A stretch of 29,443 bases of DNA from a virus (taxonomy: Duplodnaviria; Heunggongvirae; Uroviricota; Caudoviricetes): the IMG/VR virus record IMGVR_UViG_2609459795_000003. The stretch is one strand, 5' to 3'. Below the pieces are notes generated by a model. It was not told the origin of the DNA and ran no database searches. It saw only the letters and a program-made list of their open reading frames with translations. This document shows positions 20,093-28,725 of the stretch, piece after piece; within the stretch, counting starts at the first letter, position 1, and every line of letters starts with the position of its first letter. A program made the translations under genes and the position numbers.

Positions 20093-20531
20093 CTGAACCT
20101 CCCCGGCGCGTTATGAGCGCCACCAGCGAGCCGATATCCTGATTATTCAGGAACGTCAGGATTTTAACGGCTAAAGCAGAGACGATTACGGCACCAATAG
20201 CATCCAGAGGTTTATCACTGTATCCGGTCAAGTTCGCCAGCTTGGAGCCAACCAACCCAGAGCAAAGGATCCCGGCAATATATGACACGATAAAATATGC
20301 TAGTCGGCGCGATGCACTCAGATCTGCTGCTGTTGCTATGTAGAATACAGCCCCTGCAAATGCGCCAAATACAACGCCGTAATCAGTTCCGGTCAGCAGT
20401 CCATAAATACTAGCGCCCGTTAGGGCTCCACCAGCTAACCCTGTGCCGGAAATCGGATCGGACATTAGCCACCTCTTATTGCAGTGAGTCCTCTCAGAAA
20501 TAGAAATGAGAGGAATAAAAAAGGCCACCAT
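20079..20531 (-). CDS. Putative holin
   Basis: Gly/Ala-rich multi-TM protein upstream of the endolysin; probable start is the internal ATG at about 20465 (MSDPISGTG...) preceded by AAGAGGTGG. Confidence 0.55.
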   Translation of the reverse strand: MVAFFIPLISISERTHCNKRWLMSDPISGTGLAGGALTGASIYGLLTGTDYGVVFGAFAGAVFYIATAADLSASRRLAYFIVSYIAGILCSGLVGSKLANLTGYSDKPLDAIGAVIVSALAVKILTFLNNQDIGSLVALITRRGGSGGAK

Positions 20532-20540
20532 TTGGCAGCC
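20517..20540 (-). promoter_or_regulatory. Degenerate palindrome GGCTGCCAAATGGTGGCC plus T-run after the 268-aa cargo gene
   Basis: Shares the half-site GGCTGCCAA with the perfect palindrome at 21546-21563; followed on the minus strand by TTTTTT. Could be a weak terminator and/or a second operator. Confidence 0.35.
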
Positions 20541-20573
20541 ATAGAATTGATGTAATTATAACTAATTCATTAA

Positions 20574-21380
20574 CTATTTCTTAATGATGCTATTTAACAT
20601 TTCTAATGCAAAAAGCAACATGGAGCTAATAAAATACAATATAACCGCACTGGCAATCGCTCCAATTATAGCCTGGACACTCCAGTGAAAGTAATTTTTA
20701 CCATTAATAACAAACTTAACACTAGGAAACAAAAAGTCGATAAGCTTAATTATTAATGGAATAGCAAAGCTCCATAAGTTCGAAAACAAAATAAAGATAC
20801 AAATAAATGATAAAGCAAATGCACCATCGATTGATAGTTTTGGCGCCAGTTTTGAGGCTGTCCATAAGCTAAGCAAAAAGCCAACTGTCACACCTGAAAT
20901 CTGGATACTTAACATAGTCCAAGCTGTTCTAAAAAATCTAAATTTATTTTTGCACTTGTTAATTAAATCCTGAATCGTAATCCATAACGAGTCAACCCAC
21001 TCATTATCTTCCGATGCTACAATCATTGTGCTGCTATTTGAATTCCTCTCATCAATTCGTAGCTCCATCCAAGATCCATTCATCCTGTTAGACTGTCGAC
21101 TTTGATAAGTTTCAATAGTAAAAATTATTTGATCAATCCTAGTGGCCTGTCTAAAGTATTTCACAAGCTCACCGATAGAATCAACTTTATACCCCTTACC
21201 ATCGAACAAAATAAAAAAAACACATTGAGCACAAACTTCCCTACTTTCCTTTTGAGCTTGCTCATTCATTTTAACGCAGCGTTCGACAATTGCCGTGCTT
21301 AAGCTAATCAAGCTATCTTCATTTATAGAAACACCTGAAATATTCTTGCTTCTGTAAAAATATGACACTTTCGATTCCAC
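20574..21380 (-). CDS. AT-rich cargo protein: soluble N-terminal domain plus C-terminal 3-4 TM helices, unknown function
   Basis: 268-aa ORF, visibly AT-rich; hydrophobic segments in the last ~110 aa. Track start is GTG at 21380 with no convincing RBS, so the true start is uncertain. Confidence 0.55.
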   Translation of the reverse strand: MESKVSYFYRSKNISGVSINEDSLISLSTAIVERCVKMNEQAQKESREVCAQCVFFILFDGKGYKVDSIGELVKYFRQATRIDQIIFTIETYQSRQSNRMNGSWMELRIDERNSNSSTMIVASEDNEWVDSLWITIQDLINKCKNKFRFFRTAWTMLSIQISGVTVGFLLSLWTASKLAPKLSIDGAFALSFICIFILFSNLWSFAIPLIIKLIDFLFPSVKFVINGKNYFHWSVQAIIGAIASAVILYFISSMLLFALEMLNSIIKK

Positions 21381-21511
21381 TCCGCACCAGTCTCGATTTA
21401 GCGCAGGTTAACATAACCACTTCATTGGTAGAAGAAAAGAACTCTTCTTGTCAGAAAGCTACTGTGATATCCCTAAACCTGCAGATGATACAGAACAAAA
21501 TTTAAGCATCA

Positions 21512-21563
21512 ATTGTAGGCGATTTTAAATTCACTTTACAGTTTAGGCTGCCAATTGGCAGCC
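21512..21563 (-). promoter_or_regulatory. Perfect 18-bp palindrome GGCTGCCAATTGGCAGCC adjacent to a candidate promoter for the 268-aa gene
   Basis: Palindrome at 21546-21563; on the minus strand it is followed after 5 nt by TGTAAA (21535-21540), a 17-nt spacer and TACAAT (21512-21517). Confidence 0.4.
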
Positions 21564-21577
21564 GATTGAAGCAGAAA

Positions 21578-21847
21578 TCAATGAGTGCTCATCGATGAAT
21601 TTTTTTCAGCGCCAATCTCACTCAAAAAAGCAAAACCTTTTGACGTTATCTCATTAGCAATCAATCCACCTTCGGCAGATTTGCTTCGTATAACATCGAT
21701 AAAACCTATATCAGCAAGATCTGAAATAGCAAAGTTAACCTCTTTTGCTGAGAGATGAGGTAATGATGCAGCCTGAATTCTAGAATCCTTTGGCTGCAAT
21801 TCATTCACTCGACGTAGTATTTCAAGATGGATAGAGGTCAGTTTCAT
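21578..21847 (-). CDS. AT-rich cargo protein: small putative winged-helix/HTH protein
   Basis: 89-aa ORF with strong RBS (AGGAG, 6-nt spacing) and an upstream extended -10; alternating hydrophobic/charged pattern consistent with a small DNA-binding fold (inference). Confidence 0.5.
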   Translation of the reverse strand: MKLTSIHLEILRRVNELQPKDSRIQAASLPHLSAKEVNFAISDLADIGFIDVIRSKSAEGGLIANEITSKGFAFLSEIGAEKNSSMSTH

Positions 21848-21884
21848 AATGTTCTCCTGTTTTTAATGTTGTTTTACAGAAAAC

Positions 21885-21893
21885 ATTATAACA
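21885..21893 (-). promoter_or_regulatory. Extended -10 promoter element TGTTATAAT upstream of the 89-aa cargo gene
   Basis: Minus strand TGtTATAAT about 35 nt upstream of the 89-aa ATG; no good -35, as is common for extended -10 promoters. Confidence 0.45.
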
Positions 21894-21920
21894 CATTGAT
21901 TTTGATGTAGATTGAATAGA

Positions 21921-21953
21921 AAAAAACCATAAAAAAACCTCGCAATAGCGAGG
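21921..21953 (-). terminator. tR'-like Rho-independent terminator downstream of Q
   Basis: Minus strand: CCTCGC-TATT-GCGAGG hairpin followed by TTTTTTTATGGTTTTTTT, about 110 nt after the Q stop. Confidence 0.65.
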
Positions 21954-22061
21954 TCGTAAAAATTGTTCAACGATAGATACACAAGCCCCATCGTTGAGAA
22001 AATCTTATCCATATTTTTTGAGAAATACAAGTATTATGTCGTTATCTTCGGCGAAAATCGC

Positions 22062-22856
22062 TTATCTCGTCACCCTTCTCAATTGTGCTTCAGCGTAAGC
22101 TTCCTCCTGCCAGCACTTTGTAACCAGTTTATCAATGACATCTGCATATCCTTTGTACCACTGATAATCCGTCAGGTCTGGTACCAGCTTCTGGACATGA
22201 AGCCGCGCCAGTGTGGTTGGTAAACGGCTAAACCGGTTTCCACTGCAACGCCCACAAATCTTATAAACAGGCGTGCCATGAAGCCGGGTTCTTTTTTCAT
22301 CCAGGACAATACCTTTACCCTTACACCCTCTGCACGCGGTGCTGACTTCTCCCTTACCATGGCAATGCTGACATAGTTCCTTCACCCACTCTTCCTTGAT
22401 AACAGATTCCCCGCTTCTGGAGTGTTTCACCACTTCGCGCAATACATTATGAAATCCAGTACCAGCACAATGCTCACAGCGAGCCTTACTTGCCGCAGAC
22501 CTGGAATAATCAGCAAAGGCAAAATTCACAAGGTAAGGGATGATCTGTAACCGGGTTTCTTCACTCAATTTGTTCAATGTCGGGTTATCCAGTGCCATCG
22601 CGTAATTGAGCAGACCTTCAATCGCAAACTGAGGATCCTGAACACCAACTTTTGCCAGGAATAAGGCAAACCCAAGCGGTGCTTTCGACTGCACCATCCC
22701 CTGCGCAGCCATCACATCCGTAATCGTTAAACCACCTGAGCCTGTCGCCGGTGCGTCATCGCTCAATTTTGGAGATTTTGGGGAGTAATATTTTGGTAAG
22801 GCTTCAAGGTTCATGCTCGTTCTCCACTTACGCCAGCACGCCAATTGCCAGCGCAC
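22062..22856 (-). CDS. Late-gene antitermination protein Q
   Basis: 264-aa ORF (probable start at MNLEALPKYY, about 22814) with Cys/His zinc-binding motifs (CEHCAGTG ... CQHCHGKG ... CRGCKGKG ... CGRC), immediately upstream of a terminator and the lysis genes. Confidence 0.7.
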   Translation of the reverse strand: MRWQLACWRKWRTSMNLEALPKYYSPKSPKLSDDAPATGSGGLTITDVMAAQGMVQSKAPLGFALFLAKVGVQDPQFAIEGLLNYAMALDNPTLNKLSEETRLQIIPYLVNFAFADYSRSAASKARCEHCAGTGFHNVLREVVKHSRSGESVIKEEWVKELCQHCHGKGEVSTACRGCKGKGIVLDEKRTRLHGTPVYKICGRCSGNRFSRLPTTLARLHVQKLVPDLTDYQWYKGYADVIDKLVTKCWQEEAYAEAQLRRVTR

Positions 22857-23823
22857 GATCGATAAAACGAAATATCAGCTCCAACTGGGAGCCATACTTT
22901 TCTTCAAATGCCACGGTATCCGCATGCAGATCGTCGTGATGCTTTCTGCACAAAGGCAACACAAAGAGGTCATGCGCTTTTGTACCCATTCCCCCCTGAC
23001 CGTCGCCTATCAGGTGGTGGGGATCATCAGCAAGCTTTCCACAACATGCACACGGCTGTGTCTTAACCCAGCGCGTGTACTTTTCATTAGCCCAGCGGCG
23101 ACGTTTTGGGCGTAACATAAAAGACTCCGGCGACTCCGGATCCACTTTCAGCGCCAGCACCTTTTTCGCCTTATCCTGGATGATGCTGGTGGCAGGAACC
23201 GAAGGCACAAGGTCACTTTCCCGGGTGACAGACGGCACAACAGGCTTCGGTAATCTCAGTGCCTTACGGGCTGCACTTTCCGGTAAGGCATCCGCCAGGT
23301 CATTACGAACCAGCCACCAGCACAGTTCCGGCATTGTCACAACGTGACTATCATCAAAACCGAGATCCCGACGCACAACAGACAATACCCAGCGGGCACA
23401 GTTATCCGTTGCCATTGATTCCAGCCGTTCCGTGAACTGATCGCGCAACTGGTTATCGCAGTGCCAGCACAGACGGATTGCGCCCGGCGCGTGTCGCATT
23501 GTGGTCATGTTCTCGCTGTGCCAGTCGGAATGAGGCCACTGGCAGCCTTTTTCACGAAGTAACCAGCTTTCAAGACATTCCACCCCACCAGCACGACGAA
23601 TCACTGCCTCATTACGGAACACGGCCCGAACGACAGGATCATCCGCCAGCGGTTGTGATGCCGCGGGAACGGCACCACTGGCGAAAGATGAATAATGCTC
23701 CGGCTCAGGCTCCAGCAGGACACGCCCCTGCATAAACAGGGGCATCAGCTCTGAACCTGGTCTGAACAATACGATCCCCATACGCGGGGCAATTTCAGGG
23801 GTCAGTAGTGCTCTCACGGTCAC
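22828..23823 (-). CDS. DUF968-like protein with C-terminal HNH-like Cys/His motif
   Basis: 331-aa ORF; C-terminus CACCGKLADDPHHLIGDGQGG...CRKHHDDLH looks like an HNH-type zinc finger; located in the nin-like region upstream of Q. Confidence 0.45.
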   Translation of the reverse strand: MTVRALLTPEIAPRMGIVLFRPGSELMPLFMQGRVLLEPEPEHYSSFASGAVPAASQPLADDPVVRAVFRNEAVIRRAGGVECLESWLLREKGCQWPHSDWHSENMTTMRHAPGAIRLCWHCDNQLRDQFTERLESMATDNCARWVLSVVRRDLGFDDSHVVTMPELCWWLVRNDLADALPESAARKALRLPKPVVPSVTRESDLVPSVPATSIIQDKAKKVLALKVDPESPESFMLRPKRRRWANEKYTRWVKTQPCACCGKLADDPHHLIGDGQGGMGTKAHDLFVLPLCRKHHDDLHADTVAFEEKYGSQLELIFRFIDRALAIGVLA

Positions 23824-23824
23824 C

Positions 23825-24622
23825 TCAATGAACGGTATCGAGCAGCTTTAACAGCTCAGGGAATCGGGATTCGAAAAAGTGCGGCTGCGTCTCGCGCGGA
23901 TTTGCGGGACTGGTGATGTTCTTGCCGAACATGCAGCCTTTCGCTGTCAGCGACCAGAATTTTTTGATGTTGTTAATCGCGGTACGGCTGTATCGTTCGC
24001 GCTGTTCGACGATCCCCAGCTTCACCATCTGGTGATATGCCTGATTAGCCGTAAGGCGGATACCATACTGCTTCAGCAGTGCACTCAATGATAGCGTAGG
24101 GCGGCTTGAGCCATCGAGTGCATCAGCAGGAGCATCAATGGCATAGCGCGGTGCCAGATTCGGTAAGCCAACAGCCTCCTGAAGCTTCTGACAGGCACCA
24201 AGCACTGAAGAGTTAGACAGGTTTAACTCCCTGCGCATAAAGTCCAGCAGAATCACACCAGCCTGCATCTTGTCAGCAGCCTGCCCGGATAATTTTTCCG
24301 GTGCGCTGGTTACCATATCGAAAGTACGGATCACCTTCAGATGGAATGACGGGCTGATCCACATTGCATAGGCATACACCAGTTCTTTGCAGACATACGT
24401 CCCCTGGTTATTTCCGCCACGAATAACGTTAACTGGCTCTATATTGACCGAGTTGCAAATCTGCAACTCGCTTATTAAACGTTCAGTTTGCTCATTGCGG
24501 AGCCAGAATGCAGGCTTATGCTTATCCAGAGAACCGGCAGCCCTGTGCAGATCGTTCAGGCTGTAACGACCATAAGCATCACGACGAACTTCAATACCAT
24601 CAATGACCATCAGATTATTCAT
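23825..24622 (-). CDS. KilA-N domain protein (putative antirepressor-like)
   Basis: 265-aa ORF; N-terminal ~100 aa (MVIDGIEVRRDAYGRYSLNDLHRAAG...KPAFWLRNEQTERLISEL) has the KilA-N pattern as I recall it. Confidence 0.6.
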   Translation of the reverse strand: MNNLMVIDGIEVRRDAYGRYSLNDLHRAAGSLDKHKPAFWLRNEQTERLISELQICNSVNIEPVNVIRGGNNQGTYVCKELVYAYAMWISPSFHLKVIRTFDMVTSAPEKLSGQAADKMQAGVILLDFMRRELNLSNSSVLGACQKLQEAVGLPNLAPRYAIDAPADALDGSSRPTLSLSALLKQYGIRLTANQAYHQMVKLGIVEQRERYSRTAINNIKKFWSLTAKGCMFGKNITSPANPRETQPHFFESRFPELLKLLDTVH

Positions 24623-24641
24623 ACTTCGTTTCTCCTCTTAA

Positions 24642-25031
24642 TCAGGCGGCTGCACCCGCCGTTTTCTCGTACTTACTGATAGTGATCTCGACCTTCCCTT
24701 CCGGGATAACCGGTCCCCACTCCACCAGCATTCTTTTCACCTGACTGTCGTCTTCCCACACACCCGCGTGGGTCAGGGCGTCAAACAGCGCCTTGTTATA
24801 GTTGTCCAGATCGCGGATCCGGTTATCCGGTGGAAACAACACGATCTCCACTGCAGCAGGTGCCGACGTTGGTTTCGGCAGACGACGTAACTGCTCAACT
24901 ATTGCTGCGCACGCCGCGCTCTGGAATTTTCGCCCCGCCGTGCTTATCAGGCTCTTACCAGCAAACGCCCCTTTGTTGGGGTGTCGCCAGTACGTGTTCA
25001 CGCTGGGCGGAAAAGGCAGAATAAGCTTCAT
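24642..25031 (-). CDS. rusA: Holliday junction resolvase RusA
   Basis: 129-aa ORF beginning MKLILPFPPSVNTYW..., the characteristic RusA N-terminus; typical nin-region location. Confidence 0.8.
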   Translation of the reverse strand: MKLILPFPPSVNTYWRHPNKGAFAGKSLISTAGRKFQSAACAAIVEQLRRLPKPTSAPAAVEIVLFPPDNRIRDLDNYNKALFDALTHAGVWEDDSQVKRMLVEWGPVIPEGKVEITISKYEKTAGAAA

Positions 25032-25387
25032 ACTTTCAGGCCCCTCTCATGTAACCAGTGGGCTGCACGCAGCCTGGCGTTTTCCTCACCGGCAAGCAGT
25101 GAGCGGATAATCCCGACCGCCTCGCTGTCGTCGTCCTTCACCGCGGTATGAAGCGTTATCCCCCGGGCCACGCCACGCTTTATCGTGATGACGCCTTTTT
25201 TCTCCAGAGCACGAAGATGCTCCACCGCTGCATTCACCGAACGGTATCCCAGCATGGTTGCCACCTCCTGATTGGTTGGTGGGAAGCCACGTTCTTTCTG
25301 ATAAGAAATCAGCATATCCAGCACCTGCTGCTGGCATTGAGTTAACGTCGTCATTAAGCCCCCACGTAATTCCCTGACAGATACCAC
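25028..25387 (-). CDS. LexA-like N-terminal DNA-binding domain protein lacking the S24 peptidase domain
   Basis: 119-aa ORF (probable start MTTLTQ at about 25354). Residues MTTLTQCQQQVLDMLISYQKERGFPPTNQEVATMLGYRSVNAAVEHLRALEKKGVITIKRGVARGITL closely parallel the LexA DNA-binding domain; no Ser/Lys peptidase region follows. Confidence 0.55.
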   Translation of the reverse strand: MVSVRELRGGLMTTLTQCQQQVLDMLISYQKERGFPPTNQEVATMLGYRSVNAAVEHLRALEKKGVITIKRGVARGITLHTAVKDDDSEAVGIIRSLLAGEENARLRAAHWLHERGLKV

Positions 25388-25848
25388 TCTTCACCCGATG
25401 CAGCGCGCTTGCTGCTTTTCCGTAAGCACCGCTCACGACGCGCCAGAAAATTGTTTCGTTCTGGCTGGGAGTGGCTTTCACGGAATGCCGCCATCCACAC
25501 GGTTGCAGCACGACGGTATAAGCCCCTGGACTCCAGTTCTTCCGCCTGGCGGGTCAGGCACAAAATCACCCGGGGATCGTTAGTGCCGACATAGAAATTA
25601 CGCACAGGTCTGGTTTCACGAACTGGTTGTGGTTTCGGCTCCTGCGCTCTCTCAGTCAGGCGCGGGAAATGTCTGCGTGTATCTCCTTCACAACGGTGAG
25701 CCACACGTCCACTCTGACGTAACTTGCTTGCTGACTGCAGAACGCGCTGCCGTGAGTAACCAGCAAAAGCATCCGCAATGTCTCCGGAAGTACACCCCGG
25801 ATGGGCTTCAATGAATTTCTGAACGTCATTTAACAGACTCATGATCAC
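25354..25848 (-). CDS. PerC-like transcriptional regulator (putative)
   Basis: 164-aa ORF; C-terminal segment AEELESRGLYRRAATVWMAAF resembles the conserved PerC/Pch motif as I recall it; probable start is the ATG at about 25842. Confidence 0.4.
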   Translation of the reverse strand: MIMSLLNDVQKFIEAHPGCTSGDIADAFAGYSRQRVLQSASKLRQSGRVAHRCEGDTRRHFPRLTERAQEPKPQPVRETRPVRNFYVGTNDPRVILCLTRQAEELESRGLYRRAATVWMAAFRESHSQPERNNFLARRERCLRKSSKRAASGEEWYLSGNYVGA

Positions 25849-26786
25849 CCCCTGAATCCTGCCGGGATCTGGCTGTAGTCCACATTGTCGTAACTGGATT
25901 TGAAGTACGGGTCTTCGCGTTTTTCGGTGTACGTGCTTACGGACGGCGATAAGCGCAGGGAAAGCTCATCCCATTTTTCCCGCAGCTTCGACGGGCTGAG
26001 CACGTTACGGCACCAGAACGGATCGCGGCTGACGCGGCTGTACATCTCGCAGATTTGTTTGTGAGTACGACCATCCTGCACACACATCAGGCGAATTTCG
26101 TTTGCCCAGGCTGTCCAGTTCGGTTCTTTGGGACGAACCACCTCGCCGTCACATTCGGCAGCCTGCTCGTACAGGGCGATGATTTTTTTCCAGAGCCACT
26201 GTGCGCAGGTCAAATCATCCTGCGTCCCCCACTGGCGCTTTTTAGGGCTGAATACAACCGCATCAGGATGGCGAGTTAAAAAATCCTGTTCAGCCGTCTG
26301 CGTGTCCGGTTGCGAAGCGTCCGGACGAGAAGTTTTTTTATCTGACGGATCATGTTTTGATTTTACTGACGGATCCCCGCCAGATTCTGACGGGTGAAAA
26401 CCCGCTTTTTTGCCAGATTTCGACGCATCAAATTTTGACGGGTCAGATTTTGATGCGTCAGATTTTGACGGGTCAGAATCTGACAGTTGAGAAAAAGCCG
26501 CAGCCTGAAGCTTCGCAACGTTAAGCTGATAAACATTCGACGCATTGCGGTTACCCTGGCGACGCGCCTTACGCGTTAACCAGCCTTCTGCTTCCAGCCG
26601 TGCGATAGCCGTTCTGACGGTACTCATCCCCGCGCCAATCTGGCGGGCAATGGTTTCAATTGATGGCCAGCACACACCTTCGTCATTACTGAAATCAGCC
26701 AGGCGTGCCATAATTGCCACGCTGGATAATTTCATGCCTGACGCTGCGCAACCATCCCATACATAGCCGGTTAATTTAGTGCTCAT
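25845..26786 (-). CDS. Replication initiator (lambda O-like replisome organiser) with internal iterons
   Basis: 313-aa ORF; N-terminal wHTH-like domain, central repetitive linker (DPSKSDASKSDPSKFDASKS) encoded by 15-bp DNA repeats, distinct C-terminal domain; sits after the Cro/CII-like genes like lambda O. Confidence 0.6.
   Translation of the reverse strand: MSTKLTGYVWDGCAASGMKLSSVAIMARLADFSNDEGVCWPSIETIARQIGAGMSTVRTAIARLEAEGWLTRKARRQGNRNASNVYQLNVAKLQAAAFSQLSDSDPSKSDASKSDPSKFDASKSGKKAGFHPSESGGDPSVKSKHDPSDKKTSRPDASQPDTQTAEQDFLTRHPDAVVFSPKKRQWGTQDDLTCAQWLWKKIIALYEQAAECDGEVVRPKEPNWTAWANEIRLMCVQDGRTHKQICEMYSRVSRDPFWCRNVLSPSKLREKWDELSLRLSPSVSTYTEKREDPYFKSSYDNVDYSQIPAGFRG
26341..26490. repeat. 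Iteron array (candidate phage replication origin) inside the initiator gene
   Basis: About 8 copies of a ~15-bp unit (consensus near TCAGATTTTGACGGG); four consecutive copies at exact 15-bp spacing 26435-26490; an AT-richer stretch on the 3' side (26325-26370). Confidence 0.6.
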
Positions 26787-26795
26787 GACCGACCT

Positions 26796-27134
26796 CTATT
26801 TCCCTGAATTTACGACGAAACTTTTCGAGCGGACTGAAGCATTCATGCTCATAGCCTTCGCGGAGGTAGATAACCCGTTGTGTTTCCGGCTCCCAACGAA
26901 TGACTCTGACGGGTACTCCGTAGTGATCTTTGAACCAGCGGTTAACTTGTCGCAAAGGACTGTCTCCTTTTGCCGGTTAAAATCACCCACAGCCCACTCT
27001 GCAAAGCTGTGGGTTACAATTACCCTGCCACCTGGTACATTTACTGCATAGCAATACTCCACCTTCGCTTTTCCACCCGGTACAGGAAGCGCAATCAGTT
27101 GCGAGCGACGGTAGTGTGTTGTTAAACTATTCAT
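26796..27134 (-). CDS. Hypothetical protein with apparent frame discontinuity (possible frameshifted gene or two overlapping small genes)
   Basis: 112-aa ORF whose C-terminal third is low-complexity, while an alternative frame over 26776-26955 encodes a convincing 59-residue peptide (...[58 protein letters not shown]) with only a TTG start preceded by AAGGAG. Confidence 0.3.
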
Positions 27135-27682
27135 GCGTTAGTTTCTCCACAGTCACGACACGCCACGGCGCCCGGAGCTGCACACTCGCGGGCGTCATTA
27201 CTTTCTGAAATGCAAAAAATTTTGTAGACCAGTGCTGCATGCTCCTGCAGCTTCGAAATTGAGAGGTACAGCTCGTCGTTAATTGCTGTCTTCTCATGCG
27301 GTTCCACTACACCGTCTTCAATTGCTGAACGAATCTGTTTTGAATAACTGCCGATCTGTTCAATGACCTCCAGCAGGCGTTGGTTGATATCGGCGTTGTC
27401 CACATCCTCGACATCAGGAAGAGACACAAAGACGCCATTTGCAGACTGCGCCACAGCGTCAGCAATGAAGTGAGTTCCACCAGCACGTTGCAAAATCATT
27501 GCCCATCCCAGCGGGAAAATCTGATCGCCATCGGCACGAAGGCGGTTAAATAATGCGTTCTCTGTTACATCCAGCCAGTCAGCAGCTTCAGCGTAACCCC
27601 CCGGCAACGCTGCGATAGTTTTTCTGACAGCTTTCACGTACCACTCAGGCTGTTTTTCTACTTTCCAGTGATGCTTACCCAC
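27131..27682 (-). CDS. CII-like early regulatory protein (putative)
   Basis: 183-aa ORF immediately downstream of the Cro-like gene and upstream of the replication gene; family assignment by position and vague recollection only. Confidence 0.35.
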
Positions 27683-27935
27683 GGTTCACCTCCTGTTCCT
27701 GTGGTTTAAACCCATTCTGGTTTTGGCTAGATTGAAAACGTGCCGGATAAAGAATCTGCATTTCGCTGACTTCACCCTTAAAAAAATTGGCTAAACGTTC
27801 TGCAAGCTCGATAGATGGAATCTGCTCCAGCCTCTCAATACGACTCAACGTCGCTGGATTGACTTGAACACCCGCAGCAACATGCTGCAAAGTGAAACCA
27901 TGCGCCTTACGCACATTTCGTAATAGTGATTGCAT
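27675..27935 (-). CDS. Cro-like HTH repressor
   Basis: 86-aa ORF divergent from the CI-like gene; HTH-type segment (GFTLQHVAAGVQVNPATLSRIE); SD GGAGG 5 nt before the ATG. Confidence 0.6.
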   Translation of the reverse strand: MQSLLRNVRKAHGFTLQHVAAGVQVNPATLSRIERLEQIPSIELAERLANFFKGEVSEMQILYPARFQSSQNQNGFKPQEQEVNRG

Positions 27936-27945
27936 ATAACCTCCA

Positions 27946-28032
27946 AATATTGCGCGTTATGCATGTTATTTCACGCAATTATTTTGCGCAAGTTGATTTG
28001 CTTATCACGCAATAAAGAAATGTAATAAACGC
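27946..28032. promoter_or_regulatory. Immunity-region operator/promoter segment (OR-like) between cro-like and cI-like genes
   Basis: 97-bp divergent intergenic region with repeated CACGCAAT / TTGCGCAA-type motifs and a plus-strand -35 TTGCTT (27998-28003), 17-nt spacer, -10 TGTAAT (28021-28026) ending 6 nt before the cI ATG. Confidence 0.45.
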
Positions 28033-28725
28033 ATGAACATAGGAAACCGAGTCAGACAACTTCGCCAAGCGAAGAACATGAAAATCGCCGATCTCGCTGA
28101 AGCAATAGGAGTAGATGCGGCGAACATCTCGCGCTTAGAAACGGGTAAGCAAAAACAATTTACCGAACAAACACTGAGTAATATTGCCAAGAGCTTAGGT
28201 GTTGATATTGCTGATCTCTTTACCTCTGCCCACAAAAGTAATACTGTATATAAAAACAGTAATAATGAGGATGTTGCGCAGGTGAAGGATGTGTTCCGTA
28301 TTGAAATGCTGGATATCAGTGCCAGTGCGGGAAATGGCCTTATCCAAGGCGGTGATGTCATTGATGTGATTCATGCCATCGAATACAGAACTGATAATGC
28401 TGTATCAATGTTCGGCGGACGACCAGCCAATCACATCAAAGTTATCAACGTTCGTGGGGACAGTATGTGTCCAACCATTGAGCCAGGAGATCTCATCTTC
28501 GTTGATGTCAGCATCAATCAGTTTGATGGTGATGGTATATATGTCTTTGGTTTTGATGACAAAATATACGTTAAAAGACTTCAAATGATTCCTGACAAAC
28601 TGCTGGTGATTTCTGATAACCAGATTTACCGTGAATGGGGAATTACTAGCGAAAACGAACACCGATTCATGGTCTTTGGAAAGGTCTTAATCAGTCAGTC
28701 GCAAACCCTTAAGAGACATAATTAA
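28033..28725 (+). CDS. CI-type prophage repressor (HTH plus S24 LexA-like peptidase domain)
   Basis: 230-aa ORF; N-terminal HTH (RVRQLRQAKNMKIADLAEAIGVDAANISRLETGK), C-terminal autocleavage domain with GDSM (catalytic Ser) and VKRL (Lys); divergent from the cro-like gene. Confidence 0.85.
   Translation: MNIGNRVRQLRQAKNMKIADLAEAIGVDAANISRLETGKQKQFTEQTLSNIAKSLGVDIADLFTSAHKSNTVYKNSNNEDVAQVKDVFRIEMLDISASAGNGLIQGGDVIDVIHAIEYRTDNAVSMFGGRPANHIKVINVRGDSMCPTIEPGDLIFVDVSINQFDGDGIYVFGFDDKIYVKRLQMIPDKLLVISDNQIYREWGITSENEHRFMVFGKVLISQSQTLKRHN

Follow-up and report, generated by a model that had tools for sequence, protein, structure and literature searches.

A LexA-like DNA-binding protein without a protease domain, encoded in the lytic operon of an icd-site prophage

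Truncated homologues of the repressor LexA are encoded by some phages. One of them is gp6 of the Bacillus thuringiensis tectivirus GIL01, which switches on the late promoter P3 (PMC6182141). Its site lies at about −43.5 of the late promoter, and the palindrome that it recognises, GaCACAnnTGTGaC, is its own and unlike the host LexA box, with K38 as the key residue (PMC6182141). In our literature search, gp6 was the only characterised truncated phage LexA homologue. A pangenome of Shiga toxin (Stx) phages lists a pfam01726-only "LexA family transcriptional regulator" ('pham 237') in 15 phages, with no functional work (PMC8136144). In LexA itself, the DNA-contacting residues are S39, N41, A42, E44, and E45 (PMC3091678). 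Here, we describe a small LexA-like protein encoded in IMG/VR virus record IMGVR_UViG_2609459795_000003 (29,443 nucleotides; hereafter, the window). It consists of a LexA-type winged helix-turn-helix (wHTH) followed by a short helical tail in place of the S24 peptidase domain, and its gene lies in the lytic operon of the prophage. It belongs among the phage-encoded truncated LexA homologues and is itself uncharacterised; the literature search found no experimental or functional study of it.

An earlier note on this DNA had placed a stand-alone LexA-type protein at 25028 to 25387. A minus-strand open reading frame (ORF) does exist there (25028..25387 in the ORF list, 119 aa from a GTG), with its start now corrected to an in-frame ATG at 25354 (25354-25352), which gives a 108-aa product (MTTLTQCQQQVLDML...HERGLKV; it begins MTTLTQ and ends GLKV). 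The coding sequence is most likely 25028-25354 (minus strand), because the upstream PerC-like gene ends in a TAA stop that shares a base with this ATG (TAATG), because RefSeq WP_000210164.1 ("LexA family transcriptional regulator") is the 108-aa form at the same coordinates in a genome 100% identical over 24600-25900, and because the GTG form would add 11 codons that fall within the 3' end of the upstream gene. Family members also begin at the Met equivalent to that of the 108-aa form. The features of the gene are as follows.

25028..25354, minus strand: LexA-like gene, 108 aa (ORF list, RefSeq coding sequence, PHROG 362)
25355..25387, minus strand: 11-codon extension to the GTG, overlapping the PerC-like 3' end and probably not translated with the LexA-like protein
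25145..25354, minus strand: LexA-type wHTH, residues 1-70 (PF01726, AlphaFold secondary structure, Foldseek to 3jso)
25199..25240, minus strand: recognition helix, residues 39-52 (alignment to E. coli LexA)
25046..25132, minus strand: predicted two-helix tail, residues 75-103 (AlphaFold model, conserved hydrophobic pattern, ratio of nonsynonymous to synonymous substitution rates [dN/dS])
25028..25031, minus strand: ATGA overlap of the LexA-like stop and the RusA start (sequence)

The Pfam model PF01726 (LexA_DNA_bind) was matched whole (model positions 1-65 of 65; residues 12-76 of the 119-aa form), with an E value of 3.7e-19 and 68.7 bits (cut-off, 23.7 bits). Searches with phmmer against PDB sequences matched LexA proteins exclusively, including E. 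coli LexA (1lea, 1jhh, and 3jso) at E values of 7e-16 to 2e-15, and identity to the N-terminal domain of E. coli LexA was ~50% over about residues 1-69. An AlphaFold model built from a 19-sequence alignment (mean predicted local distance difference test [pLDDT], 85; predicted template modelling score [pTM], 0.58) was used throughout; a single sequence gave a pLDDT of 61. The model contains the elements of a winged helix (helices at residues 6-22, 28-35, and 40-52 and a two-strand wing at 56-68) and was superposed by Foldseek on the N-terminal domain of the LexA-DNA complex 3jso with a root-mean-square deviation (rmsd) of 0.9 Å over 68 residues at 50% identity. Alignment against LexA profiles, in which the whole of PF01726 was matched, upholds the LexA assignment, and together with the 3jso superposition it confirms the LexA N-terminal winged helix that the earlier note had read by eye in the first ~70 residues.

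The S24 peptidase domain is absent: no peptidase Pfam model was matched, and the chain stops at residue 108. The NCBIfam lexA equivalog TIGR00498 scored 70.3 bits, below its cut-off of 110.95, with the alignment confined to model positions 1-91 of 203. The Pfam result and the partial TIGR00498 alignment bear out the earlier statement that the Ser/Lys S24 peptidase motifs are missing. Judged by its sequence, the protein is thus distinct from LexA repressor proper, with the N-terminal wHTH present and the Ser119/Lys156 S24 peptidase/dimerisation domain absent, and without that domain it cannot undergo LexA-style autocleavage. Of the interpretation given in the earlier note, the structural part (a LexA-type winged helix without the Ser/Lys protease) stands; its functional part, an uncleavable repressor-like factor acting on SOS boxes or a phage operator, stays conditional and is weighed below.

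In E. coli LexA, the winged helix is followed by the S24 Ser/Lys protease/dimerisation domain, which is replaced in the LexA-like protein by a 34-residue two-helix tail. In the AlphaFold model, a low-confidence linker (residues 71-75) leads into confident helices at residues 75-88 and 93-103, with pLDDT of about 90 across residues 81-100. Foldseek found no counterpart of these helices in LexA or in any PDB structural match. Among 104 family sequences, the tail keeps a pattern of V/I 80, I/L 82 and 83, L/M 86, L/V 87, A93, R94, A97, W/F 100, and L101, in which R94, A97, W/F100, and L101 are almost invariant. Two amphipathic helices this small cannot make a stable core by themselves, and the pTM of 0.58 despite high pLDDT suggests that the tail is not docked onto the wHTH. 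From the size and amphipathic character of the helices, the conserved pattern, and the undocked tail of the model, we infer that the tail may be a dimerisation module standing in for the C-terminal domain of LexA. The architecture proposed in this way, an N-terminal winged helix plus a short helical C-terminal module, is like that of BlaI/MecI/CopY-type repressors; structural matches to these were weak and of high rmsd (2g9w, 8.3 Å), with no sequence relationship, and the likeness is best taken as a design analogy, not membership. Several database proteins (P0132, P0133, P0148, P0152, and P0153) carry two tandem LexA DNA-binding domains (DBDs) per chain without S24, an alternative arrangement in which a palindrome could be occupied by a pair of wHTH domains with no need for a dimerisation domain.

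The end of the LexA alignment also bears on a different explanation. In the HMMER alignment, which reaches residue 90, A88-G89 falls on A84-G85 of LexA (LLAGEE versus VAAGEP), as would suit a LexA stabiliser or pseudo-substrate whose LLAGEE segment docks in trans at the active site of LexA or UmuD, or is cleaved there, without any DNA binding. We consider this very improbable, since relatives vary at the Ala-Gly pair (AN, VG, SG, and ER) and the segment is a high-confidence predicted alpha-helix, not an extended loop. A LexA cleavage-site mimic was rejected on the unconserved pair and its place in a predicted helix; nor does the protein have a catalytic domain that could cut the bond.

Both parts of the protein are under purifying selection, with a median dN/dS of 0.21 for residues 1-70 and 0.34 for residues 75-108. 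More than 100 diverse sequences share a length of about 106-111 aa. The 1.3-kb segment that holds the gene (24600-25900) was found in 2,703 of 5,426 complete E. coli genomes, in up to 4 copies each. These data contradict the view that the gene is a functionless, decaying remnant of a captured lexA. Such a remnant could well look like this one, a lexA truncated just past the cleavage-site region, but the low dN/dS values on the two parts, the conserved length and translational coupling, and the presence of the segment in so many genomes make the idea scarcely credible.

In the E. coli genomes, the gene is annotated as "LexA family transcriptional regulator," "LexA family protein," or "LexA repressor." PHROG 362 ("transcriptional repressor") was matched over its full length (positions 1-106 of 106; E value, 2e-59). 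Searches of phage records with tblastn found copies 95-99% identical in SfV (orf42, "unknown"), SfII, SfIV, mEp460, cdtI, and Ayreon and in many Stx2a, Stx2c, and Stx2k phages. The LexA-like protein is a member of the PHROG 362 family (SfV-like phages, SfII, mEp460, cdtI, and Stx2 phages), in which the gene holds the same position in the nin-like region, directly upstream of RusA. The PHROG 362 and RefSeq labels are annotations by homology only, read from sequence. Because standard annotation had already labelled the gene correctly, its presence in the sequence is in itself unremarkable.

The window is a contractile-tailed prophage of the icd-site (e14-site) type. The genes that frame the LexA-like gene are listed below.

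28033-28725, plus strand: CI-like XRE+S24 repressor, immunity region (RefSeq annotation)
27675-27935, minus strand: cro-like gene, divergent from the cI-like gene (RefSeq annotation)
25354..25848, minus strand: PerC-family regulator (yfdN-like), upstream neighbour (PF06069, PHROG 1324, RefSeq)
24642..25031, minus strand: RusA Holliday-junction resolvase, downstream neighbour (PF05866, PHROG 34, RefSeq)

E. coli LexA is encoded at the host lexA locus, whereas the LexA-like protein is encoded in the phage lytic operon. This rightward operon (minus strand) runs cro, ymfL, DUF4222, O-like, PerC-like, LexA-like, RusA, KilA-N, DUF968/HNH, and Q; from cro it is 2.3 kb downstream to the LexA-like gene, which comes after the replication genes and before Q. 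The gene overlaps both of its neighbours, and no convincing promoter or terminator proper to it was found. On the strength of the operon position and the lack of a credible promoter or terminator of its own, we assign it as a delayed-early lytic gene, not a maintenance repressor; a maintenance repressor of the CI type is ruled out, as the gene lies outside the immunity region and in the rightward operon. The earlier note had suggested that the protein might modulate prophage induction; since the gene belongs to the lytic rightward operon, the protein could influence induction only once derepression has occurred. Membership in a defence system was rejected, because PADLOC defence models gave nothing beyond one marginal, wHTH-level match (E value, 3.6e-4; 18 bits) to a CARF-associated model.

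Two other parts of the operon were noted in passing. The O-like gene (25845-26786, minus strand) contains ~4 tandem 15-bp units (CAGATTTTGACGGGT) at 26414-26477, encoding repeated SDPSKSDASKSD; they resemble origin iterons within an initiator gene, as in lambda O. Downstream of Q, in the late-promoter region, an 89-aa ORF at 21578-21847 (minus strand; MKLTSIHLEILRRVNELQ...) resembles a small winged-helix protein and is followed by a membrane-protein gene; a moron-like element seems to have been inserted here, with Q on one side and the lysis genes on the other.

A profile-free exhaustive search returned 4,563 cluster representatives at E values of ≤1e-3. These were mostly true LexA proteins and included several proteins of ~105-135 aa that were 40-52% identical to the LexA-like protein, with alignments reaching the C-terminal tail. 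Three distant homologues were used as queries to fetch 147 viral loci, all of ~50% GC and of enterobacterial-type gene content; the set of 146 gene-carrying loci includes L001 and L002. RusA came next downstream in nearly all fetched loci, and the LexA-like stop overlapped the RusA start in 125 of the 146; from the ATGA overlap, translation of the two appears to be coupled. Related loci have O-like and PerC-like genes upstream and DUF968 downstream. Between subfamilies, in syntenic loci, the LexA-like protein is 45-50% identical, compared with 70-78% for RusA. In mEp460, SfV, SfII, and many relatives, a Dam-type methylase gene, absent from the window, lies between the PerC-like and LexA-like genes. 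Database ORFs P0001, P0021, P0092, P0098, and P0121 join the N terminus of the O-like protein or the C terminus of the Dam methylase to the LexA-like protein and most probably arose through frameshifts, deletions, or read-through calls in single assemblies.

This close linkage could be taken to mean that the protein is a DNA-binding accessory of its recombination and replication partners (RusA and DUF968/HNH), tethering or targeting them without regulating transcription. The overlap with the RusA start in 125 of 146 loci would fit, as would database protein P0158 (240 aa), in which a LexA-like DBD of the present phage family is joined to the C-terminal HNH portion of DUF968, whose gene lies two genes downstream of the LexA-like gene in the window. 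However, RusA and DUF968 are present without a LexA-like gene in ST64B and Klebsiella phage 1 LV-2017, the P0158 fusion is a single sequence that could be a deletion or an assembly artefact, and wHTH domains of the LexA type are known to bind operators in a sequence-specific manner. An accessory role is improbable on this evidence.

The recognition helix (residues 39-52) reads SVNAAVEHLRALEK in the LexA-like protein and SPNAAEEHLKALAR in LexA. At positions 39, 41, 42, 44, and 45, the LexA-like protein has S, N, A, V, and E, so that four of the five LexA contacts (S39, N41, A42, and E45) are identical, with E44 changed to V; R28 and P40 of E. coli LexA are N and V. Judged on these residues, the window protein itself is close to LexA at the contact positions, despite the family-wide variation described below.

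The reading that we prefer, held tentatively, is that the protein is a RecA-proof, LexA-derived dimeric, sequence-specific DNA-binding regulator that would be made only in lytic growth and would recognise LexA-box-like palindromes; the fold, the missing domain, the operon position, the synteny, and the purifying selection are shown above, whereas its dimerisation, DNA binding, target sequence, and physiological effect are what we infer. The gene would be transcribed with the delayed-early rightward operon, its translation coupled to that of its neighbours. The N-terminal 70 residues would fold as a LexA winged helix, with helix 3 entering the major groove, and the two-helix hairpin would replace S24 as the dimeriser and thereby place two wHTH domains on one palindrome. 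Activated RecA (RecA*) would be unable to remove the protein, because it has no protease domain. It would most likely bind LexA-box-like palindromes, either CTGT-N8-ACAG or something close to it, and after host LexA is destroyed in induction, the protein could reoccupy such operators. The candidates would be SOS promoters of the host, genes under LexA control on co-resident elements, and an umuDC-type box in the prophage's own cI. In favour of this reading are the full-length LexA_DNA_bind match, the 50% identity to LexA and the superposition on its DNA-bound form, the absent S24 domain, the purifying selection on both parts, the operon position with overlaps on either side and no convincing promoter of the gene's own, the retained S39, N41, A42, and E45 (S39, N41, and A43 being invariant, and A42 kept in 97%, among 104 relatives), and a perfect, umuDC-identical SOS box in the prophage, and there is a precedent by analogy in GIL01 gp6, a truncated phage LexA homologue with specific DNA binding and transcription control (PMC6182141).

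SOS boxes were scored with a position matrix of 19 E. coli LexA operators, of which the umuDC entry was checked against K-12. The single strong box in the window is listed here.

28242..28261, no strand assigned: candidate operator, SOS box in the cI-like gene (matrix score, umuDC identity, 13/13 CI homologues)

This box (TACTGTATATAAAAACAGTA, 28242-28261) scored 26.9 bits, no other site in the window reached 12 bits, and no further match within 3 mismatches was found there (0 expected). The box, a 20-mer, matches the umuDC operator of K-12 letter for letter and sits at ~codon 70 of the cI-like gene (28033-28725, plus strand), within the linker that joins the HTH to the S24 domain. All 13 loci with a CI at least 70% identical had a box of 22.9-27.2 bits at the same codon; CI homologues with the box belong to the SfII/mEp460/ST64B/Klebsiella phage lineage, and more distant CI proteins are without it. 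When ten loci were aligned, the box was a conserved island in a hypervariable linker at both the DNA and the protein level. No description of a cI-internal umuDC-type box was found in the literature searched. An internal promoter at the box was rejected, as a consensus scan found none, and so was a CI product consisting of the C-terminal domain only, as the downstream in-frame Met is not conserved in homologues. A second conserved type of SOS box (C/TACTGTAAAAATATCCAGTA, 22-25 bits) was seen in L007 (10259-10278) and also in L008-L011, L030, L049, and L071, where a gene for a 350-aa DNA methyltransferase follows the Q-like gene and is overlapped by the box at codons 3-9; the window has no equivalent.

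Several observations weigh against LexA-box-like targets. ST64B and Klebsiella phage 1 LV-2017 keep the cI-internal box but lack the LexA-like gene, and among the 150 loci taken into the SOS-box search, of which 146 carry the gene, just 24 had a box of at least 17 bits within ~6 kb (0 in shuffled controls), so a general association of gene and box was rejected. As the box is not tied to the LexA-like gene, host LexA would be its obvious ligand, and the LexA-like protein is a possible second one. CTGT-N8-ACAG cores with at most 1 mismatch numbered 13 in the window against 9.6 expected, which is not above chance. Variation at the specificity positions is also unexpected if the target were an invariant host SOS box: among the 104 family members, E is absent from position 44, which holds A, T, V, or F; position 45 has E (44%), D (35%), or A (20%); and none retains R28 of LexA. 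In a Citrobacter relative with 66% identity, NTIAGH stands in the place of NAAVEH of the window protein. The dimerisation assigned to the tail, finally, is read from a pattern of conserved residues. The e14 prophage of K-12 was rejected as a model, because its repressor YmfK is unrelated, no SOS box is present, and a deletion has removed the LexA-like gene; for the same reasons (a different repressor, no box, and the region lost), existing K-12 LexA chromatin immunoprecipitation data are uninformative.

The same variation bears on the main alternative, a phage-specific transcription factor like gp6, whose specificity has diverged from that of LexA and which acts on an operator of the phage itself, with no action on host SOS boxes. 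Such a factor would activate or repress a phage promoter, for example, in timing Q and the late genes or the RusA-KilA-N-DUF968 segment. It is possible, if doubtful. Across the family, S39, N41, and A43 are invariant and A42 is kept in 97%, while positions 44 to 47 differ by subfamily (VEHL, AEHV, TDML, and FEHI); a constant scaffold with shifting specificity positions appears to suit a diversifying operator specificity better than one invariant host target. The faster divergence of the LexA-like protein (45-50% identity) than of the adjacent RusA (70-78%) in syntenic loci points the same way, and gp6 itself uses a site other than the host LexA box to activate a late promoter (PMC6182141). Against a gp6-like factor, the window protein keeps four of the five LexA contact residues, and no candidate operator emerged. 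Inverted-repeat scans of 20300-22900 and 22000-28050 for a phage-borne operator gave nothing credible, the repeats in 22000-28050 being unremarkable, and enrichment by subfamily of exact palindromes with 6-nucleotide arms (136 loci) returned only coding coincidences or GC-rich hairpins.

The likeness to gp6 is that of a temperate-phage protein cut down to the LexA DBD, early expressed and not cleavable. The two differ in host, phage type, and genomic position, the LexA-like gene being fixed upstream of rusA, and gp6 has no helical tail (three helices and a wing by the description in PMC6182141), whereas the LexA-like protein has a conserved one. No Bacillus or tectivirus record was matched by tblastn among 50,697 phage records (E value, ≤1e-5), only enterobacterial phages. 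Predicted viral structures contain many short proteins (65-152 aa) in which a LexA DBD stands alone, with tectiviruses and mycobacteriophage Wildcat among their sources; to the small tectiviral LexA-DBD proteins, the structural search found fold-level similarity only (E value, 3e-3).

A more specific form of the RecA-proof regulator that we prefer is unlikely: that a phage-made, RecA-proof LexA is a commitment and SOS shut-off device, which, once host LexA and CI have been lost in induction, would pair up through its helical tail and reoccupy SOS operators, including the box in its own cI, where it would block repressor resynthesis, and the promoters of the host and of co-resident prophages. 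If this were true, SOS-induced toxins, competing prophages, and SOS-controlled defences would be silenced in the lytic cycle. Approximately half of complete E. coli genomes carry the segment, and its carriers include Stx2-converting and Shigella serotype-converting phages. If the LexA-like protein binds SOS boxes, it would be a widespread phage-encoded SOS brake, with a bearing on Shiga toxin phage induction, on prophage competition, and on SOS-driven mutagenesis under antibiotics. If it binds an operator of its own, it would be a Gram-negative counterpart of GIL01 gp6.

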